DNA from: Alistipes sp.
Lineage (GTDB): Bacteria > Bacteroidota > Bacteroidia > Bacteroidales > Rikenellaceae
Direction: 5' to 3'
NCBI RefSeq assembly: GCF_020026455.1
Contig: NZ_JAHHQJ010000014.1
Location: 6,153 to 70,152, forward strand
DNA length: 64,000 nucleotides
This document shows positions 4,849-60,306 of this stretch, piece by piece (position 1 is the first letter of the stretch; each line of letters opens with the position of its first letter). The notes under the pieces are model-generated. The model had not been told where the DNA came from. It was given only the letters and a program-made list of their open reading frames with translations, and searched no databases. The position numbers and the translations under genes were made by a program.

Positions 4849-7665
4849 ATGGAAGATACGATCAAAATACTGGGCGCCCGGGTTCACAACCTCAAGAACG
4901 TGGACCTCGAAATTCCGCGCCGCAAACTGGTAGTCGTCACCGGCCTGTCGGGGTCGGGCAAATCGTCGCTAGCCTTCGACACGATCTATGCCGAGGGGCA
5001 GCGCCGCTACATGGAGACGCTGTCGACCTATGCACGGCAGTTCGTGGGGACGATGGAGCGTCCCGATGTGGACAAGATCACGGGATTGAGCCCCGTAGTG
5101 GCCATCGAGCAGAAGACGACCAACAAGAACCCCCGCTCGACGGTGGGCACCGTGACCGAGATCAACGACTTCCTGCGCCTGCTCTATGCGCGGGCGTCGC
5201 GGGCCTATTCGCCCGTGACGGGCGAAGAGATGGTCCACTATACCGACGACCAGATCACCGAACTGATCCTCTCGGGCTTCTCCGGGCGCAGGATTGCCCT
5301 GATGGCCCCCATCGTCAAGGGCCGCAAGGGCCACTACCGCGAGCTGTTCGAGTCGCTGGCCAAGAAGGGCTACATCTACGCACGCATCGACGGCGAGATC
5401 CGCGAAATATCCTCCGGCATGCGCCTCGACCGCTACAAGGTCCACACCGTCGATCTGGTGGTCGACCGCCTCGCGGTCAGCGAGGAGTCCCGCGATCGGC
5501 TGGCGACCTCCCTGAAGGAGTCGATGCGCCAGGGCAAGGGCACGATGGCCGTCTACGACTACGGAACCGAGCAGCTGCGTTTCTACTCGCGCCACCTGAT
5601 GTGCCCCTCGACGGGCGTGGCCTTCGAAGACCCTGCACCGCATACCTTCTCGTTCAACTCGCCGAAGGGCGCCTGCCCGCATTGCAACGGACTGGGCGAG
5701 GAGGCGGTCTTCGATGTGGCTAAGATCATTCCCGATGCGGGTCTTTCGCTGCGCGAAGGGGCCGTCGGGCCTCTGGGCAAGTACCGCAACAACATGCTTT
5801 TCGCCATTCTGGAGATGCTGGGGCGCCGTTACGATTTCACGCTCGACGACCCTGTCGAAAGTTTCTCCGAGGAGGCGCTGAATGCCGTGCTGTACGGCGA
5901 TTCCGAGCCGCTGACGGTCGACCTGCGGGAGTTCTCGTCCTCGGGCGGCCGCCAGTTCCTCTCGTGGGAGGGCGTGGCCGAATATATCGGCCGCACCGAG
6001 GACGACGATTCGAAACACGGGCAGAAGTGGCGTGACCAGTTCCTTGTCTACCGCAAATGTTCGGTCTGCGGCGGTTCGCGCCTGCGGAAGGAGTCGTTGC
6101 AGTTCCGCGTCGCCGGCAAGAACATCGCCGAGGTGTCGGCCATGTCTATTTCCGAATTCTCGGAGTGGGTCCCCACCCTCGAAAAGCAACTGTCGGATAA
6201 GGAGTGGAAGATTGCCCGGGAGATCGTCAAGGAGATCCGCGAACGCCTTCGGTTCCTGATGGATGTGGGCTTGGGCTACCTCTCGCTGACGCGTTCGTCG
6301 CGGTCGCTGTCGGGCGGCGAGAGCCAGCGCATCCGCCTCGCCACGCAGATCGGCTCGAAGCTCGTGAATGTGCTCTATATCCTCGACGAGCCGTCGATCG
6401 GCCTTCACCAGCGCGATAACCTGCGGCTGATCCACAGCCTCGAAGAGCTGCGCGACGCGGGCAACTCGGTGATCGTCGTCGAGCACGACGAGGACATGAT
6501 GCGTGCGGCCGACTTCATCGTCGACGTCGGCCCCCGCGCCGGACGCAAGGGCGGCAACATCGTGGCTGCCGGGACGTTCGACGACATCCTCCGCTCCGAC
6601 ACCATCACCGCCGATTACCTCACGGGGCGGCGGCGGATCGAGATTCCCGAAACCTTGCGCCCGGGAACGGGCGAGAGCATCGTGATCCGCGGAGCGCGGG
6701 GCAACAACCTCAAGCATGTCACGGCCGAATTTCCGCTGGGCAAATTCATCTGCGTGACGGGAGTCAGCGGCTCGGGCAAGTCGACGCTCATCAACGAGAC
6801 CCTGCGTCCGATCCTCTCCCGGGAGCTTTACCGCTCCTTCGACCAGCCGCTGGAGTACGACGCGGCGGAGGGTATCGGGCACATCGACAAACTGGTCGTC
6901 GTCGACCAGTCGCCCATCGGGCGCACTCCGCGGTCGAATCCCGCGACCTATTCGAACGTCTTTTCCGACATCCGCAAGCTGTTCGAGATGACGCCCGACG
7001 CCCAGATCCGCGGCTTCAAGGCCGGGCGTTTCTCGTTCAACGTCAAGGGCGGCCGGTGCGAGGAGTGCCGCGGCGCGGGCGTGCAGACCATCGAGATGAA
7101 CTTTCTGCCCGACGTCTACGTGCGTTGCAAGGCGTGCGGCGGGCACCGCTACAACCGCGAGACGCTCGAAGTGAAGTACAAGGGCAAAAATATCGACGAC
7201 GTACTGAACATGACGGTCAACATGGCCGTGGAGTTCTTCGAGAACATACCTAACATCTACCAGAAGCTCCGTGCCATCCAGGAGGTGGGCCTGGGTTACC
7301 TCACGCTCGGCCAGCCCTGCACGACGCTGTCGGGCGGCGAGAGCCAGCGCATCAAGCTCTCGACCGAGCTTTCGAAACGCGACACGGGCCGCACGCTCTA
7401 CATCCTCGACGAACCCACGACGGGCCTCCATTTCGAGGATATCCGTCTGCTGCTGGAGGTGTTGAACAAGCTCGTCGACCGCGGCAATACGGTCATCGTC
7501 ATCGAACACAACCTCGACGTCATCAAGGTCGCCGACCACATTATAGATATAGGTCCCGAGGGTGGGGCGGCCGGCGGTGAGATCGTCGTTGCGGGCACAC
7601 CGCACGAGGTGGCGCAGTGCGAGGGCAGCTATACGGGTCAGTTCCTCAAAAAGATCGGCTTGTAA
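4849..7665 (+). CDS. uvrA: Excinuclease ABC subunit A
   Basis: Two Walker A motifs ([18 protein letters not shown]), two LSGGE signatures, zinc-finger CxxC pairs, 938 aa. Confidence 0.98.
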
Positions 7666-32375: not shown

Positions 32376-32532
32376 GGCTGATAATCATCTGTTTGTCGTT
32401 GTTGTTTCGGGAGCCTGTGTCCCGAATTACAGGTGCAAAGGTAGTGTTTTTTGCGGAAAAACAGATGGACCCCACAAAAGAGCTCCCTGCAAACCGTCCG
32501 TTTGCAGGGAGCTCTGCGGCGGAATGGGGCTG

Positions 32533-46538: not shown

Positions 46539-49805
<3,267 letters not shown>

Positions 49806-50019
49806 AATACGCTGCTTGTGAGCTGCTCGAATGCAAGGCCGATTCTACCGGGGGCCATGTCGCGCAACGGATCATTCCCCGGCTTCATCCTTTGGGATCT
49901 GCTGCCTGAGCAAAGCAGCCTGCTCTACCAACCGGGGAAATAGCCGGAGGAGCCGATGATCGAACAATGCTTTCCGAAAATCGGTGCCGGACAGCTCTTT
50001 TGCACTCCTCATACCTCTA

Positions 50020-50038
50020 TTATTTAACATAATGAATA
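50020..50038 (+). repeat. Left arm of 19-bp inverted repeat (contains ATTTAACATAA)
   Basis: TTATTTAACATAATGAATA matches the reverse complement of 51587-51605 at 18/19. Confidence 0.7.
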
Positions 50039-50092
50039 TATTAATTCAATTACCTTTGTACTGTATTGATGTTGTATTGAGGCTAAAATCCT

Positions 50093-51497
50093 TTACAACT
50101 GTAACTGATCACAGTTAACTGGTCTATACGGATCTATTTTGTGGATCATCTAATCCAACAGATCATCACTCGGTATTATGAATGATCTATACAGATCGTT
50201 ACCCGCATGCACCCGCTTGTCGTCATGACCAAACTACTGGCCGCCCATCCCAAGCAAACCACGGCGTTCCGGTTCGGACGATGAAGATTTAAGCTCGACA
50301 TGCCGCTGTTTTGCCATAGGCAACGCACCGGCTTCAGACCCAACAAGCGACAATGCACCGGATTTCAACTTTTACCGCTCCCTCGGCTTTGCCTCGTGAC
50401 CTTCCTGCAATTGGAACCGGAGCACCCCGATTGAACCGAAGCATCCCGAGTCAAGGATGCTTTTCTGAAGGATGCTTTAAGTTCGCTTGTGGTGCCAGAC
50501 AAATGGATTACCGGATCTTCCCGTGCGTGCCATATTCACAAAAATATTTCGGACGATAGCTTTTAGCGCTTTGTCGGCGTGAAACTCTCGAAGGTGAGGT
50601 CGTCGTACAATATTACGATCCGCCGGATGGCGACATCTGTCCGTGTGCCGGGAAATGGAACCGTTGCCTGCGGAGTGGAATTTTCGGTCGCGGCTGCAGC
50701 CGGCTCCTGATGCGGTGGATTGATCCCTGTATTCCGCTCGGGACCGAACAGCCCTTCGGAGATCGATGCGCCGGATGCAAGGGTCGGTGCGGATTGTTCG
50801 GGCTTGCTGTCGCGATACATCTTGTCGGAGTCGAGCAGCAGCCAGTCGGGATTAATCCGCGGGAACCTCCGGAGAATCTTCTGGAGCAAATCGAATCCCG
50901 GTTTGTTTCGTCCGGCGAGAATATGGGAAATTCCCGCAGGATTGATTCCGAGCAGTTCCGCGAGCTGGCTCGGCTTCAATCCTTCGTTTTTCATCAGATC
51001 GAGCAATTTTTCCCTCATCAGCGCAATTTTTTACAAATATAAATGCTTTTCTTTTGTAAAACAAGAAAAATCTACATTTGTAAAATGTTAATAAGTGTCG
51101 ATAAAGTTTACAAGTGTAAATCAATTAATATGGTTAAATTTCTTCGATAGCTATTATATAAACTATTTATTTATATAAAATAGATTAAAATCCTTGTTTA
51201 TATGTAATTATAGTGTGTAATATCCTATGTATGCCCCTGCTGTCGACTATTACGTGTTTTGACCTCGTATTATTTAACTGATGCTTTATATGATTTATGT
51301 AAATAGCTGGTTATTAATACTTCTTTTTGATGTTATTCAATGGTTTGATCCTTGCGGGCTTGCCTCTGATCTGACATTTCCGCTCCTTGAGGTAGTTTGT
51401 TACAAGTGTAACTATTAACAGAGGCTACAAACAAATGTTTTTTACAAAAGTAATTACAGATGGAAATAAAACTCTTTTTGAGTGTTTACAAATGTAA
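50093..51497. promoter_or_regulatory. Array of TTACA-N2-TGTAA palindromes around the HTH gene
   Basis: Perfect at 50093, 51108, 51400, 51486; one mismatch at 51031, 51072, 51442, 51454. Confidence 0.75.
50563..51018 (-). CDS. XRE-family helix-turn-helix protein
   Basis: LKPSQLAELLGINPAGISHILAGRNKPGFDLLQKI..NPDWLL; low-complexity linker; C-terminal IRRIVILYDDLTFESF. Confidence 0.9.
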   Translation of the reverse strand: MREKLLDLMKNEGLKPSQLAELLGINPAGISHILAGRNKPGFDLLQKILRRFPRINPDWLLLDSDKMYRDSKPEQSAPTLASGASISEGLFGPERNTGINPPHQEPAAAATENSTPQATVPFPGTRTDVAIRRIVILYDDLTFESFTPTKR

Positions 51498-51586
51498 ATA
51501 CACTCCCCTATTTTATGCCTCCGGATGTATTTTCAAGCTATTTTCGAACCCTTTACCAGCTGTTTTGTTTACTTTTGCTGATTCCG

Positions 51587-51605
51587 TATTTATTATGTTA
51601 AATAA
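51587..51605 (+). repeat. Right arm of 19-bp inverted repeat (contains TTATGTTAAAT)
   Basis: TATTTATTATGTTAAATAA. Confidence 0.7.
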
Positions 51606-51676
51606 AAAGGCCGAATAGTGTTAATAACCCACTATCCGGCTTAAATACAGTTTGTTGTATAGTTGTGAACAGTCTT

Positions 51677-52063
51677 CTATTTCGAGAGTTTATCGGCGAT
51701 TTCGTGGAACTCTTCCGGCGTTAATTTGAGCTTTTCGCGGTGGAAATCCACGTCGTTTTCGCTCTGAATCGGGATCAGATGGATGTGTGCATGGGGTACT
51801 TCAAGGCCTAAAACGACAATTGCCACCCTTGCGCACGCTATTTCCCGTTTGATTTTGGCGGCGACCTCTTTGGCGAAAAGCATCATACCGGCCAGTGTTG
51901 TGTCGTCGAGATCGAAGATGTAATCCACCTCCTTTTTTGGGACGACCAGCGTATGGCCTTTTGTCAGTGGATTGATGTCGAGGAATGCGTAGTAGTCATC
52001 GTTTTCGGCTACTTTGTACGAGGGAATCTCCCCCGCAATGATACGTGAAAAAATGGTTGCCAT
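51677..52063 (-). CDS. HIT family nucleotide hydrolase
   Basis: TIFSRIIAGEIP, FLDINP..GHTLVVPK, VPHAHIHLIP histidine triad. Confidence 0.95.
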   Translation of the reverse strand: MATIFSRIIAGEIPSYKVAENDDYYAFLDINPLTKGHTLVVPKKEVDYIFDLDDTTLAGMMLFAKEVAAKIKREIACARVAIVVLGLEVPHAHIHLIPIQSENDVDFHREKLKLTPEEFHEIADKLSK

Positions 52064-52259
52064 ATCTTTTGTATTTAGGTTTTTCTTATCCTGCAATCCG
52101 ACGCCAGGGCCGTTTTCCTAATTTTCGCCGGCTTTTTCTGCCGCGATTCGTTTTGCGGATCGGTTTTCCGGTCCTCTGCGGCCCTGCGTTGCTGCGATCG
52201 GCTGCTGCTTCTGCTTTGGCCTGTCCGCTTCCGCAAGAAGCCCCTAAATCGCAAGCTCG

Positions 52260-52800
52260 GCCTGTACCGTGTGTTGTGCTACCGTGTCGCTGTGCGCCGT
52301 GTCGCTATGCTACCGTGCTTCCATACCTACCGTATGCCGTGCTGTCGTGCCGCCTGCGGGCCGTGTCGCTATGTTGCTGTGCTTCCTACCGCTATGCTAC
52401 CGAACTACCGTTCTATCAAGCTACCGTGCTGTCGTGCCGCCTGCCAGCATGCTACCCTGTTCGGGAGATGATGTTGCTGTATAACAGGTTGATTTACTGT
52501 CAGATACTTGCGTCTATTGCACATCCCGAGCCAGATTATTGGTATTTCAGCCAGCATTTCGCCTTGTCCGGATTCTGGGCGCCTGTCCAGCCAACCTGTC
52601 TGCCTGCTTGTTTATCGCGATCGGCCTGCCTGCTGGTGTCAGCCGACTTGCCCATCTACCAACCTGACAACCAGCTTGCTTGCCTTGTCGTCAGCCTGCC
52701 TGTTTATCGGCCTGTTTACCTGCCTGTTTGTCAGTCGGTTGCCAGTTGACCGCCCTCCATCCTATCTGTCGGCCTATCCCCCTGTCAGCCTCCTACCAAC
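52260..52800. repeat. Intergenic low-complexity degenerate repeat tract
   Basis: Recurrent CTACCGTG, GCTGTCGTGCCGCCTGC and CCTGTTT units. Confidence 0.65.
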
Positions 52801-52919
52801 CTCTTGCTGGCCTCCTGCCGGCCTGATCCCTTGGGGCTCATGCCCGCAGTAAAGGAGTTTCCCGAACTGGGGAACTGGAGTTTTAAGGGCCCTTGCTGGC
52901 CCCCCCCCCGGACTTGGTT

Positions 52920-53408
52920 TTAAAGATGCTCCCCGAACTTGGGTTTCAGAATTTCCGAGTAGATAATCGCCTGCCGGAGGTTGAATTCTTCGGCCTGGAA
53001 TGCCGTTGCCGTCTCCTGCTCGTTGTTTGTGAGGGAATGCGCGGCGATTTCGTCATTTCCGCCGTCATCCATGGCGCTGTTGATGCTCTGATGGCGCAGA
53101 AACCCTGTATGCCCAGAATGTCCCGTATGCCCCGTTCCGACGGCTTTCGGCATTGCCTGCTCCGGCATGTATTCCTCGGCGGGAATCTCCTCCAGACTCT
53201 GGCATTCGTCCGGAAAAACGGGCGCAACGGGCCTGAGCACAGGGGGCGGAGCCGCTTCGGATGCCGGATGTTCCTGTGCGGGCCATGCTTCTTCGTGTCC
53301 GGGAGTTCGGGCGCCTTTTCCGCGGGCCTTGCGCGATTGCGCCACGACGTTGAATATCATCGCTCCGACGATGATCACGGTCCATATTACCGATGCAAAA
53401 TCATCCAT
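52920..53408 (-). CDS. Hypothetical protein with N-terminal membrane anchor
   Basis: Hydrophobic N-terminus; C-terminal FNLRQAIIYSEILKPKF; starts 4 nt after the relA stop. Confidence 0.75.
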   Translation of the reverse strand: MDDFASVIWTVIIVGAMIFNVVAQSRKARGKGARTPGHEEAWPAQEHPASEAAPPPVLRPVAPVFPDECQSLEEIPAEEYMPEQAMPKAVGTGHTGHSGHTGFLRHQSINSAMDDGGNDEIAAHSLTNNEQETATAFQAEEFNLRQAIIYSEILKPKFGEHL

Positions 53409-53412
53409 GTCT

Positions 53413-55632
53413 TTAACTCAATCTTCGTTTGACACTCTCTATACCCTTTATCTTGCGCATCTTGTCCATCACAGCGCGGAGGCTTTCGGCATCCTTCACA
53501 TAGAGGCTGACGTTGCCTTCGACGATGCCGTCGTGGCTGTGGATGTTCACCTCCCGGAAATTGATGTTGAAATCGGCGCTCACGACCTTCGCCAGATCGA
53601 GCAGCAGCCCCTGCCGATCGATGCCGCGCAACTCCGTGGTCACCAGATAGGACATGGCCTTGTGCTGCGACCATTTGATCTCCTCTTTGACGATGTTGCG
53701 GCCGAACTGCGACGCGAGCCGGTTCAACTCGTCGCACGTGGCTTTGTGCACGATGATTTTCCCCGTAGCGGGGTCTCGATACCCTACCACCTTGTCGCCC
53801 GGAATCGGCTTGCAGCACTCCGCAATTTCGAACTGCGGTTCCGGGGTCGTAGCCTCCTCTGCCGGCGCTATTTCGCCCGGAATCGGGGTGTCGTCCGCCT
53901 CATCCTCCTTCTTCTTGGGGATGAAGAGGGTCCAGAATTTGAGTATCTTGCTCTTGGCGTTGACCTTGAGGGCTTTGTCCAGGTTGTCGAGCGAGACGAT
54001 TCCCGCCCCGATCTTGCTGTATAGCTCCTCCTTGTTGTTGCTGTCGTAAATGGGTGTTATCTTGCGCAATACGCGTCCGCTCAACTTGATGTTCAGCGAC
54101 TTCATCTTTTCGTCGAGCAGCTGCATGCCCCGCTCGATGTTGTTCTGCCGTTCGCGCTTGAGGAAACTCTTGATCGCCTGTTTGGCCTTGGCCGTGGTGA
54201 CCGTTTCGAGCCATTCGGGCTTGGGACGGGCGTTGTCGGCCGTGATGATCTCGATCTGATCACCGCTGTTGATCTGCGTGGTGATCGGTTCGAGCTTGTG
54301 GTTGATCTTGGCGCTGATGGCGCTGTTTCCGATCTTCGAGTGGATGTCGTAGGCGAAGTCGAGGGCCGTGGCTCCGAACGGCATTTTTCGGGCTTCACCC
54401 TTGGGTGTAAATACCACTATCTCCGATGTATACAGCGATAACTTAAAGTTGTCCAGGAAGTCCACGGCATTTTCCGTCGGACTGTTCAGCGCCGCTCGGA
54501 TCTGTTTCAGCCACTTGTCGAATTCGTCCTCGTCCTGCGAAATGGTCGCATGCTTGTATTTCCAGTGAGCGGCGAATCCGCGTTCGGCGATGTCCTCCAT
54601 GCGCTGCGTGCGGATCTGCACCTCGACCCACACACCGTCGGGTCCCATCACCGTCGAGTGCAGCGCCTCGTATCCGTTGGCCTTGGGCATCGAAATCCAG
54701 TCCCTTAGCCGGTCGGGCTTGGGGGTGTAGATGTCGGTGATCGTGGAGTAAATCTGCCAGCACTGTGTCTTTTCCGAGGGGAACGGCAGGGGTTTGAAGA
54801 CGATGCGGATGGCAAACAGGTCGTAAATCTCCTCGAACGAGATCTGCTTGCGCTGCATCTTGCTCCAGATCGAGTAGACGCTCTTCACGCGTCCCGAGAT
54901 CTCGTAGTTGATGTTGTCGCGGTTGAGCGAGGCGATGATCGGGGCGTTGAACTTGTTGATGAATTCCCGGCGCGAAGCCTCGCTTTCCTGCAGTTTCTGC
55001 GTGATTTCGGCATACTGCTGCGGGAATCGGTACTTCATGCAGAGATCCTCCAGCTCGCTCTTGATCGAGAAGAGCCCCAGCCGATAGGCCAGCGGAGCGA
55101 AGAGGTAGATCGTCTCGCCGGTGATCTTGATCTGCTTGTTCATCGGCATGGCACCCAGCGTGCGCATGTTGTGCAGCCGGTCGGCGATCTTTATCAGAAT
55201 TACCCGTACATCGTCCGAGAGGGTGAGGAGTACCTTGCGAAAATATTCGGCCTGTTCGGAGGTGTCGGCGTTGAACACGCCGGACATCTTCGTCAGTCCG
55301 TCGACCATCGAGGCGATTTTCGGTCCGAAGATGCGTTCCATGTCCTCCACGGTGTATTCCGTGTCCTCCACGACGTCGTGCAGCAGGGCCGCGACGACCG
55401 ATTTCACCCCCAGCCCGATCTCCTTGATGACGATCATGGCTACTGCAATAGGATGCAGGAGGTACGGCTCGCCGGAGCGGCGCCTTACCCCCTCGTGTGC
55501 CTCCTTGGCCAGGAAAAAAGCACGTTTGATGAAGTTCCAGTCCTCGTCGTTCTTGCAGATTTTGGTGCACGCGAGGAGCAGGTCATCCCATTTCTCCTTT
55601 ATAAGGGTTTCATCCTCAGCAGTATATCCCAT
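53413..55632 (-). CDS. relA: RelA/SpoT (p)ppGpp synthetase/hydrolase
   Basis: RRSGEPYLLHP, LLHDVVEDT (HD), KIADRLHNMRT, GRVKS..IYDLFAIR, TGS domain DFAYDIHSKIG. Confidence 0.96.
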   Translation of the reverse strand: MGYTAEDETLIKEKWDDLLLACTKICKNDEDWNFIKRAFFLAKEAHEGVRRRSGEPYLLHPIAVAMIVIKEIGLGVKSVVAALLHDVVEDTEYTVEDMERIFGPKIASMVDGLTKMSGVFNADTSEQAEYFRKVLLTLSDDVRVILIKIADRLHNMRTLGAMPMNKQIKITGETIYLFAPLAYRLGLFSIKSELEDLCMKYRFPQQYAEITQKLQESEASRREFINKFNAPIIASLNRDNINYEISGRVKSVYSIWSKMQRKQISFEEIYDLFAIRIVFKPLPFPSEKTQCWQIYSTITDIYTPKPDRLRDWISMPKANGYEALHSTVMGPDGVWVEVQIRTQRMEDIAERGFAAHWKYKHATISQDEDEFDKWLKQIRAALNSPTENAVDFLDNFKLSLYTSEIVVFTPKGEARKMPFGATALDFAYDIHSKIGNSAISAKINHKLEPITTQINSGDQIEIITADNARPKPEWLETVTTAKAKQAIKSFLKRERQNNIERGMQLLDEKMKSLNIKLSGRVLRKITPIYDSNNKEELYSKIGAGIVSLDNLDKALKVNAKSKILKFWTLFIPKKKEDEADDTPIPGEIAPAEEATTPEPQFEIAECCKPIPGDKVVGYRDPATGKIIVHKATCDELNRLASQFGRNIVKEEIKWSQHKAMSYLVTTELRGIDRQGLLLDLAKVVSADFNINFREVNIHSHDGIVEGNVSLYVKDAESLRAVMDKMRKIKGIESVKRRLS

Positions 55633-58893: not shown

Positions 58894-60306
58894 CTATTGG
58901 GCGAGGACCTTTTTCTCAATCTCCTCGACCTGACGGCGGAACGCCTTGTCGGTCTCGATGAGGTTCGTCACGGCCTTGCACGAGTGGAGGACCGTGGCGT
59001 GGTTGCGGCCTCCGATGGCTGCCCCGATCGTTGTCAGCGGCGCCTTGGTGTGCTGCTTGGCCAGATACATGGCGATCTGCCGGGCCTGGGCTATTTCGCG
59101 TGTGCGCTCCGTGGAGTTGAAGCGCGCGAAGTCCAGATTGAGGTATTCGCACACGACCTCGATGATGTGGTCGATGGTGATTTCCTTCTGATAGAGCTTC
59201 ACGTAGACCTTCAGGATCTCCTTGGCCAGCGACGTGGTGATCTTGCGCCCGAGGAACGAGGCGTTGGCCACCAGCGACGACAGGGCGCCTTCGATTTCCC
59301 GCACGTTGGCCGAGATGTTGTCCGCCAGATAGGTCACCACATCGTCCGTGATCTGCGCCCCGAGCTTCTGCGCCTTGGCGCGTATGATCTTGAGCTTGGT
59401 GTCGTAGTCCGGCGTGTTGAGCTGTGCCGACAATCCCCATTTGAAGCGGGTCAGCAGTCGCTGTTCGATGTCCTTGAGTTCCACGGGCGGCTTGTCCGAC
59501 GTGAGGATCAGCTGCTTGCCCGCCAGCTGCAGGTGGTTGAATATGTTGAAGAACGCGTTCTGCGTACCGGTCTTTCCCGTCAGCTCCTGGATGTCGTCGA
59601 TGATCAGCACGTCGATCATCTGGTAGAAGTGGATGAAGTCGGGAATCTCGCCGTTCTTGTAGGCTGTCTGGAACTGCGCCTGGAACTTGTTCATCGAGAC
59701 GTAGAGCACCTGCAACTCCGGGTGTCGCTGACGCACCTCGTGGCCGATCGACTGCACGATGTGGGTCTTCCCCAGTCCCGAGTCTCCATAGATATAGAGG
59801 GGGTTGAAGGGGTTGTTTCCCGGGTTCACGGCCACGGACATGCCCGCCGAGCGGGCCAGTCGGTTGCATTCACCCTCGATGAAGGTCGCAAACGTGAGGT
59901 TTGGATTCAGCTGCGGGTCGATGATTATTTTCTTGAGTCCGGGAATTACGAACGGATTCTTTATATTTGCGGTGTTGGTCTGCGTGTTGAAGCGCGAGAT
60001 GGCCGTCGTGTCGGAATCCGCCGCCACGGGGACGGCCTGTGCGCTCGTTCGGGGCACGGCGTAGTGGAGCCGGGTCTGCTGGCCGTAGAGCTGCGAGATG
60101 ATCGGTTTGAGGAACGGGATGTAGTTCTTCTCGATCTGACGGACGTAGCTTTCGTTGGGGACCCTCAAACGAAGCGTCGTTCCGTCGAATTCGAGCGGAA
60201 CGATGGGCTGAAACCACTTTTCGAACTCCTCCGCGGAGGTTCGGGCCTTGATCTGGTCCAAGCAGTTTTGCCATATATCGCTATATGTCCGAGAGTTGTT
60301 TAGCAT
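58894..60306 (-). CDS. dnaA: Chromosomal replication initiator protein
   Basis: NPLYIYGDSGLGKTH, IDDIQ, RLLTRFKWGL, NVREIEGAL, domain IV GGRNHATVLHS. Confidence 0.98.
   Translation of the reverse strand: MLNNSRTYSDIWQNCLDQIKARTSAEEFEKWFQPIVPLEFDGTTLRLRVPNESYVRQIEKNYIPFLKPIISQLYGQQTRLHYAVPRTSAQAVPVAADSDTTAISRFNTQTNTANIKNPFVIPGLKKIIIDPQLNPNLTFATFIEGECNRLARSAGMSVAVNPGNNPFNPLYIYGDSGLGKTHIVQSIGHEVRQRHPELQVLYVSMNKFQAQFQTAYKNGEIPDFIHFYQMIDVLIIDDIQELTGKTGTQNAFFNIFNHLQLAGKQLILTSDKPPVELKDIEQRLLTRFKWGLSAQLNTPDYDTKLKIIRAKAQKLGAQITDDVVTYLADNISANVREIEGALSSLVANASFLGRKITTSLAKEILKVYVKLYQKEITIDHIIEVVCEYLNLDFARFNSTERTREIAQARQIAMYLAKQHTKAPLTTIGAAIGGRNHATVLHSCKAVTNLIETDKAFRRQVEEIEKKVLAQ

Follow-up and report, generated by a model that had tools for sequence, protein, structure and literature searches.

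The palindromes of the form TTACA-N2-TGTAA that surround a single helix-turn-helix (HTH) gene in Alistipes sp. are, in our view, the operators of the protein which that gene encodes. The gene (50563-51018, minus strand) lies in a 64,000-nucleotide stretch of contig NZ_JAHHQJ010000014.1 (positions 6,153 to 70,152), hereafter the window. We assign a probability of roughly 0.7 to the proposal that the product is a Cro/CI-type repressor (XRE class, Pfam family HTH_3) that regulates its own synthesis through a looped operator array in two parts, and whose likely purpose is to silence microviruses that integrate at the neighbouring dif site. The features computed for this locus are the clustering of the palindromes, their positional co-conservation with the gene, their overlap with its promoter, the fold of the protein, a location away from the replication origin, adjacency to dif, and the presence at dif of proviruses that bear the same motif.

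A re-scan of the window for the 12-bp palindrome returned the positions and sequences listed in an earlier note on this DNA, with perfect copies at 50093, 51108, 51400 and 51486 and one-mismatch copies at 51031, 51072, 51442 and 51454; the 14-bp extensions mentioned there (TTTACAAGTGTAAA, GTTACAAGTGTAAC and TTTACAAATGTAAA) were also found. Dinucleotide-preserving shuffles of the window yield 0.03 perfect copies by chance, and 0.23 with at most one mismatch. Two details needed correction: the copy at 51031 is 12 nt from the start codon and not 13 nt, and the GC-rich remainder of the window, thought to be free of the motif, holds a one-mismatch copy at 32427. The genome-wide scan proposed in the earlier note places four of the five perfect copies of the 2.62-Mb assembly at this locus, together with 8 of the 35 palindromes having at most one mismatch. 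Nor is the motif equally frequent in other AT-rich DNA. Among 200-bp windows with less than 40% GC, which amount to 53,047 bp genome-wide and 809 bp at the locus, the locus contains 8 of 12 copies with at most one mismatch where 0.06 would be expected, and the Poisson probability of 8 copies in its 809 bp, at the rate found in AT-rich DNA elsewhere, is about 5e-15. Base composition therefore does not account for the clustering. The only perfect copy off the locus (TTACAAATGTAA, contig C24, 24810-24821) occupies a divergent intergenic region between a gene for an 858-aa protein and a pair consisting of a GH130-like gene and a transporter gene; it may have arisen by chance or be another target. 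A literature search found no paper naming the motif string.

The palindromes accompany the HTH gene in most of the loci compared. Orthologues of the gene are present in 36 of 41 related genomes, and 27 of 30 orthologous loci have a perfect palindrome. The earlier note had asked for conservation beside orthologues, and this was found in a strict form: across 80 Rikenellaceae loci of ~5.4 kb each, all 164 perfect copies fall between -550 and -100 upstream of the gene, and none elsewhere. When four relatives were scanned whole, the orthologous locus held 4 of 4 perfect copies (in a 3.8-Mb genome), 1 of 1, 2 of 3 and 3 of 5, that is, 10 of 13 in total. The association extends to other Bacteroidota (Bacteroidales, Flavobacteriales and Marinilabiliales), where 68 of 80 loci have perfect upstream copies, often as a near and a far group. 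Within Rikenellaceae the offsets are nearly fixed, at -480, -436, about -392, -101 and -65, with optional abutting copies 12 bp away and a one-mismatch copy at -24. The description of copies on both sides of the gene holds for this genome, in which the 50093 copy does lie 3' of the gene, but it does not extend to the genus, as none of the 80 related loci has a perfect downstream copy.

The upstream copies are arranged in two clusters, the nearer of which overlaps the promoter. The -7 box TATATTTG (51034-51041, minus strand) sits within the one-mismatch palindrome at 51031-51042 (position -24), a copy that in relatives is always one mismatch off, and a -33 TTG is found at 51061-51064, 19 nt upstream of the -7 box. 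Both elements are at least 80% conserved in an alignment of 78 upstream regions, which complements an alignment of 14 genus members (A1). Bacteroides promoters follow the consensus TTTG / TAnnTTTG, and we take the two elements to fit it. Upstream of them come the putative proximal operators E (51072-51083, one mismatch, position -65), conserved in most Rikenellaceae loci, and D (51108-51119, perfect, position -101), which is conserved in A1 and stands at -101/-102 in 67 of 74 loci. An AT-rich spacer of 280 bp (51120-51399), well conserved in length and poorly in sequence, leads to the putative distal operators. These are C (51400-51411, perfect, about position -393), one of the fixed-offset sites; B (51442, one mismatch, position -436), which is conserved, with a weak one-mismatch copy abutting it (51454-51465, position -448) in a subset of relatives; and A (51486-51497, perfect, position -480), the best-conserved site, which is invariant in all 14 genus members and at least 80% conserved in the 78 loci. 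The distance from A to D is 375-380 bp, or ~36 helical turns, in 59 of 71 loci. The claim that the array exceeds the needs of autoregulation can thus be kept in part: two clusters at this fixed distance go beyond the simple case of one to three operators, but they contain no pointer to replication control. Two related conserved blocks, ATCAG-N2-3-TTTA...TATAAAG, are also found in the spacer (~51165-51197 and ~51280-51311, 114 bp apart); judged by eye, they presumably resemble the IHF consensus WATCARNNNNTTR.

The protein itself has the build of a small phage-type repressor. Its 151 residues include an HTH_3 domain (PF01381, residues 8-60) that passes the Pfam gathering score, with 36.5 bits against a cut-off of 23 and an E-value of 5e-9. 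An AlphaFold2 model made from 28 sequences consists of an N-terminal five-helix domain (residues 1-65, with helices at 2-12, 16-23, 27-35, 42-51 and 57-62; confidence score pLDDT ~90), a disordered linker (pLDDT <50) and a conserved C-terminal beta-hairpin of 13 residues (134-146, RIVILYDDLTFESF; pLDDT ~90). Foldseek matches the HTH domain to 434 Cro/repressor, P22 c2, P2 C, a repressor of phage Phi106, DdrO, SinR, HigA and the controller (C) proteins of restriction-modification systems. The top matches (434 Cro/repressor, P22 c2, P2 C, DdrO and SinR) superpose with a root-mean-square deviation of 1.5-2 Å over ~63 residues. In and around the HTH, residues S31, H32, R37, N38, P40 and W59 are invariant phylum-wide, alongside the unchanged operator. 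A Pfam scan of the protein detected neither a peptidase domain (Peptidase_S24) nor a receiver domain, and a self-cleaving repressor of the LexA/lambda CI kind was rejected since there is no S24 domain and the C-terminus is the 13-residue hairpin. The earlier note had mentioned similar proteins, with an HTH and a short beta motif at the C-terminus, as being widespread in Bacteroidota, and this proved correct. Public records for the relatives offer only the name 'helix-turn-helix domain-containing protein'.

One study (PMC3025954) covered 19 Bacteroidetes genomes and predicted dif sites in every one of them. In Rikenellaceae, the module formed by the HTH gene and its palindromes lies between dif and an inverted XerD half-site and, by GC skew, on the terminus side of the chromosome. 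The dif-like site of the window, ATTTAACATAA-TGAATA-TATTAATTCAA (50022-50049, plus strand), has its XerD arm outward and its XerC-type arm toward the HTH gene. We derived a 28-bp Rikenellaceae consensus, ATTTAACATAA-N6-TATTANNTCAA, from 84 copies downstream of orthologous genes; in fuller form it reads ATTTAACATAA-TRNNAA-TATTAYNTCAA, with an 11-6-11 build. The site at 50022-50049 is the only full match to this consensus in the 2.62-Mb assembly at up to 3 mismatches, bar one AT-rich match with 3 mismatches. Its XerD arm is, we take it, identical to that of E. coli dif. The other boundary of the module is the XerD-arm half-site TTATGTTAAAT (51593-51603, minus strand), which is inverted relative to dif and has no conserved XerC arm. 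Its core TTAACATAAT is invariant in A1 and recurs near -585 in 73 of 80 loci, and the distance from the half-site to operator A is 103-104 bp in 57 of 68 Rikenellaceae loci. Of three occurrences of the 10-mer TTAACATAAT in the genome, two, at 50024 and 51594, bracket the module in inverted orientation, and the perfect 11-mer TTATGTTAAAT occurs twice, both times at this locus. B. subtilis has XerD-binding half-sites, termed XDS, next to dif; the half-site described here, a conserved site with a XerD arm only and likewise next to dif, may by analogy be a XerD-binding site. The lineage-specific perfect palindrome TTACAACTGTAA (50093-50104) is 43 bp from the XerC-type arm. It is found again in the host flank of a provirus contig (L390), which is 94% identical over 101 bp to window positions 50019-50119.

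Phages that use dif carry the palindrome as well. Proviruses of Bacteroidales microviruses were reported to have dif-like flanks and no integrase, and no repressor was named for them (PMC3091885); in a report on dif-integrating gokushoviruses (PMC7062461) the word 'repressor' is absent. How integrase-less temperate microviruses silence their lytic genes is addressed in neither paper. A pattern scan gave 49 viral contigs with a dif-like pattern. The palindrome is present in dif-bearing contigs of 5.6-10 kb and 43-50% GC, in several of them 40-55 bp from the dif-like site, and ~105 kb of such phage DNA contains 17 perfect palindromes, against ~0.2 expected from composition. The HTH gene is complete in four IMG/VR contigs (L365, L377, L347 and L389), where a ~6-kb element has been inserted at the dif-like site next to it; three others (L390, L383 and L368) hold only a C-terminal fragment of the gene. 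The complete order is visible in L365, where half-site, operators, HTH gene, dif, the 6-kb element and a second dif follow one another. Elements also lie between two dif-like sites in L390 and L352, and in L377 the junction is beside the HTH gene. These elements have dif as their target and are flanked by dif-like repeats, as is typical of Xer-exploiting elements (IMEX) and in agreement with PMC3091885.

One complete microvirus genome (L386, 6,001 bp), with genes for Rep, capsid F and pilot protein, was examined more closely. The palindromes in it, some perfect and some nearly so, overlap TAnnTTTG boxes just ahead of the first small open reading frames (ORFs), and another pair lies on the other side of the attachment region; no HTH protein, repressor or integrase is recognisable in this genome by Pfam or PHROGs. 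In L390, each end of the provirus (235-308 and 6303-6376) has an attachment-proximal segment of phage type, made up of a palindrome, a GTCCTAAAGGAC hairpin and a dif-like site, which suggests that the left junction retains what is left of a previous integration. Arrays of the palindrome occur in larger phage contigs too: L262 has 14 copies, L310 has 5 that repeat every 21 bp, and L243 has 4 that repeat every 18 bp. Operators of this type are therefore commonly used by Bacteroidota phages. In two further contigs (L232 and L257) the arrays abut the phage's own, weakly related XRE gene.

From these data we propose a mechanism in which dimers of the HTH protein would bind each 12-14-bp palindrome, as the co-conservation of gene and palindromes suggests. 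Dimers at -101 and -65, together with one on the weak -24 site over the -7 box, would surround the gene's own promoter and repress it. The three to four distal sites (about -393 to -480), ~36 turns upstream, may cooperate with them through looping of ~378 bp of AT-rich DNA, as could be expected from the conserved spacing; the dimers of the two clusters would be joined via the conserved C-terminal beta-hairpin, perhaps aided by the two IHF-like blocks of the spacer. Such tight, cooperative autoregulation would keep the repressor at a set level, and this steady pool could in turn silence incoming or integrated phages that bear the operators. Both the repression of the gene's promoter and the control of phages are what we infer from the placement of the palindromes. 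The 50093 copy could extend the cooperativity to a prophage at dif, or be functionless. A bolder version, which we advance only tentatively and judge to be more doubtful than probable, is that this core chromosomal repressor is the lysogeny or immunity repressor of temperate microviruses (Alpavirinae-like, ~6 kb) that, having no integrase, borrow the host XerCD to integrate at dif and, through operator copies over their own promoters, the host protein for silence.

The earlier note had read the locus differently, as an origin-like region coated by the HTH protein, whose role in controlling replication would resemble that of CtrA, Spo0A or HP1021. The idea probably arose because dnaA (~59425-59910, minus strand) is only 8.4 kb from the HTH gene, and the two are 6-12 kb apart wherever they share a contig in the genus. 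The AT-richness of the locus also speaks for it, as does a spacer particular to this lineage (50105-50436), which separates the 50093 palindrome from the HTH terminator and in which six GATC within 50107-50197 (91 bp) accompany one DnaA-box-like TGTGGATCA. However, a paper on Prevotella (PMC4755523) notes that in Bacteroidetes a large distance between oriC and dnaA is common, and in two complete Alistipes genomes the HTH locus is on the terminus side, 1.35-1.7 Mb away from the point of lowest GC skew. In one of these (G004), negative skew extends from 2.8 Mb across the zero point to 1.02 Mb and positive skew from 1.19 to ~2.76 Mb, and the HTH gene, at 2.454 Mb, is 1.35 Mb from the minimum; in the other (G011), the switch from negative to positive is at ~1.7 Mb and the HTH gene at 0.01 Mb. 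By the same skew, the dnaA of Alistipes would belong to the terminus side, at a great distance from where the origin is placed. The window is on contig C6 of its own assembly, and a probable oriC candidate is found on another contig (C21, 171,310-171,760), where a very AT-rich intergenic run, similar to a DNA-unwinding element, is followed by the densest cluster of TTATCNACA-type DnaA boxes in the genome (6 in 500 bp), at a clean switch from negative to positive skew at 171-172 kb. The HTH locus has two DnaA boxes in 1.7 kb, each with one mismatch and not in a cluster, and there is no conserved DnaA box in the 78 aligned upstream regions. The block that had been called origin-like (GATC-rich, 50105-50215) is part of a ~330-bp stretch missing from the closest relative (L002), in which the terminator directly meets the dif flank; the 50105-50436 spacer is shorter in L390 as well. 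A different source for the sequence at 50000-50480, as a miniature inverted-repeat transposable element or a phage remnant, was considered and is unsupported, with no BLAST match in phage records and no repeat elsewhere in the genome. The HTH protein is not of the CtrA, Spo0A or HP1021 type because it has no receiver domain, and the locus is marked by a dif-like site and integrated proviruses. We regard control of initiation by this protein as highly improbable: the HTH locus is not an origin, and nothing indicates replication control.

Given the position of the module, the protein might instead organise the terminus or dif, or modulate Xer recombination, as a local counterpart of MatP/matS or of a factor that activates Xer. 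Positioned between dif and the XerD half-site, it would gate or shape the site of recombination, with autoregulation being incidental. The bracketing of the Rikenellaceae module by dif and the inverted XerD arm would suit such a role, and so would the fixed distance between half-site and operator A, the lineage palindrome close to the XerC-type arm, and a conserved short motif of the linker (described below) that could recruit a partner. However, in other Bacteroidota gene and operators are retained while no XerD arm can be recognised within 3 kb, the genus as a whole does not conserve the palindrome close to dif, and the sites keep to the ~0.5 kb ahead of the gene instead of being spread over a terminus domain. 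This role appears unlikely, although it retains some weight because the XerD half-site is rigidly placed. It could also be argued that the palindromes are not bound by the HTH protein at all, and represent promoter-like -7 elements or the sites of another factor, given that 87 of the 164 perfect copies, those with a TT/AA centre, hold a perfect TAnnTTTG on one strand and that the 51031 copy is a real -7 box. We consider this quite improbable: the conservation of TTACA and of TGTAA, the two half-sites, exceeds what a -7 box would require, other central pairs are common among the copies, the palindrome is nearly restricted to the region upstream of this gene though -7 boxes must number in the hundreds genome-wide, and its link with the gene spans Alistipes to Flavobacteriales. 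The weak matches to HigA antitoxins, to C proteins of restriction-modification systems and to HTH models of PADLOC, obtained with Foldseek and sequence searches, would fit an antitoxin or controller protein of a toxin-antitoxin, restriction-modification or defence module. The PADLOC matches are to generic HTH models (E 3e-5 or weaker), the gene is monocistronic between two hairpins, and its neighbours are dif and a HIT hydrolase gene with its own terminator. There is no conserved partner gene in the 80 loci, and because of this we reject the antitoxin, C-protein and defence readings, which have very little probability left.

Several points weigh against an autoregulated repressor that silences phages at dif. 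The conserved spacing is the sole ground for looping, and the oligomerising role given to the C-terminal hairpin is a guess. Sites with a TT/AA centre themselves contain the Bacteroides-type -7 box TACATTTG, and therefore part of the signal could be promoter-like rather than operator. Perfect palindromes are absent from 8 of 18 microvirus-sized contigs that bear dif. Outside Rikenellaceae the gene and operators are kept, and adjacency to dif was not seen within 3 kb; the ancestral role is therefore not attributable to dif. The assignment to the terminus side presumes the usual skew polarity, with a G-rich leading strand, and a check by gene strand was uninformative (crude ORF caller, high-GC genome). 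The cumulative skew of G004 peaks ~0.3 Mb away from the locus, which itself coincides with a change from strongly to weakly positive skew, and there is no switch from positive to negative skew at dif inside the window.

The proposed repressor can be compared with several known systems. It shares with lambda CI, 434 and P22 c2 a Cro/CI-type HTH and short palindromic operators in clusters that overlap the promoter, and with lambda OR/OL in particular two operator clusters at a fixed distance, which suggest cooperative looping, as well as the proposed autoregulation and the occurrence of operators in phage genomes. Unlike the repressors of this group, it is encoded by a single-copy core gene of the Bacteroidota chromosome and not by a prophage gene, and it has no S24 or self-cleavage domain, its C-terminus being only a 13-residue hairpin after a disordered linker. 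There is also no divergent cro-like partner, and the operators are spaced by 378 bp, compared with 2.3 kb in lambda. A parallel in lifestyle is RstR of CTXphi, a dif-integrating filamentous phage of the IMEX kind, since both cases would involve an XRE-type repressor of a small single-stranded DNA phage that uses the host XerCD at dif. However, RstR is phage-encoded, whereas the HTH protein is host-encoded beside dif and the complete microvirus that we checked shows no repressor. The match of the HTH protein to the RstR family of NCBIfam is weak (E 1e-4, 22.5 bits) and far below the family cut-off of 80 bits, and the protein is therefore not an RstR member. In GalR-HU, LacI and DeoR, as here, two operator sets are in helical phase, and the AT-rich spacer of our locus has predicted blocks that look like bending sites; compared with GalR-HU, the spacer is 290-380 bp instead of 113 bp and the regulator belongs to a different family. 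Finally, a (predicted) sequence-specific protein acting on palindromes in a terminus-side region recalls MatP/matS. However, matS sites are spread over a macrodomain and the palindromes of the HTH gene are gathered in one promoter region, and the HTH_3 fold is unlike that of MatP.

At its core, an autoregulated Cro/CI-type repressor is an already known kind of regulator. In the literature and databases searched we found no description of its phylum-wide core-gene status or of the fixed two-cluster array, and none of the bracketing by dif and a XerD half-site or of operators shared with dif-integrating microviruses, one of them without a recognisable repressor of its own. It is puzzling that a single-copy regulator kept phylum-wide should have its perfect sites almost entirely upstream of its own gene, and the databases searched give it no functional name. 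If our proposal is true, a host-encoded repressor beside the integration site would constitute a new form of phage-host dependence. The analysis also provides a practical map for Alistipes: it locates a dif site and a conserved XerD half-site, proposes an oriC at a great distance from dnaA, and places dnaA itself on the terminus side.

The surroundings of the module are simple. A terminator-type hairpin of the HTH gene (GCATCC...GGATGC; 50441-50460, minus strand), read from the sequence, is conserved in L002, L377 and L390. The gene upstream (51677-52096, minus strand) encodes a HIT-family protein (HIT domain, E 2e-20), and its own terminator-type hairpin (51610-51640, minus strand), also read from the sequence and conserved in A1, separates it from the operators. 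The HTH gene is monocistronic, with one of these hairpins on either side. A generic scan for sigma-70 promoters and terminators made no call at the hairpins, and is uninformative for Bacteroidota promoters. An Rfam scan of 49000-53500 gave sub-threshold chance matches only and no known RNA. A search for RNA runs from Alistipes sp. turned up only DNA or metagenome contigs.

One short segment of the otherwise unconserved linker of the HTH protein is conserved. Residues 87-92, S-E-G-L-F-G (~50743-50760, minus strand), conform to the motif [DSG]-L-F-[SGDA], and in orthologues from outside Rikenellaceae a Q stands three residues before the L of this motif in 16 of 55 cases, against a background of 6.7%. 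The resulting Q-x-[DS]-L-F resembles the beta-clamp-binding pentapeptide QL[SD]LF. Under the bolder version of our proposal, this clamp-like motif could, together with the XerD half-site, tie repression to chromosome replication or segregation.

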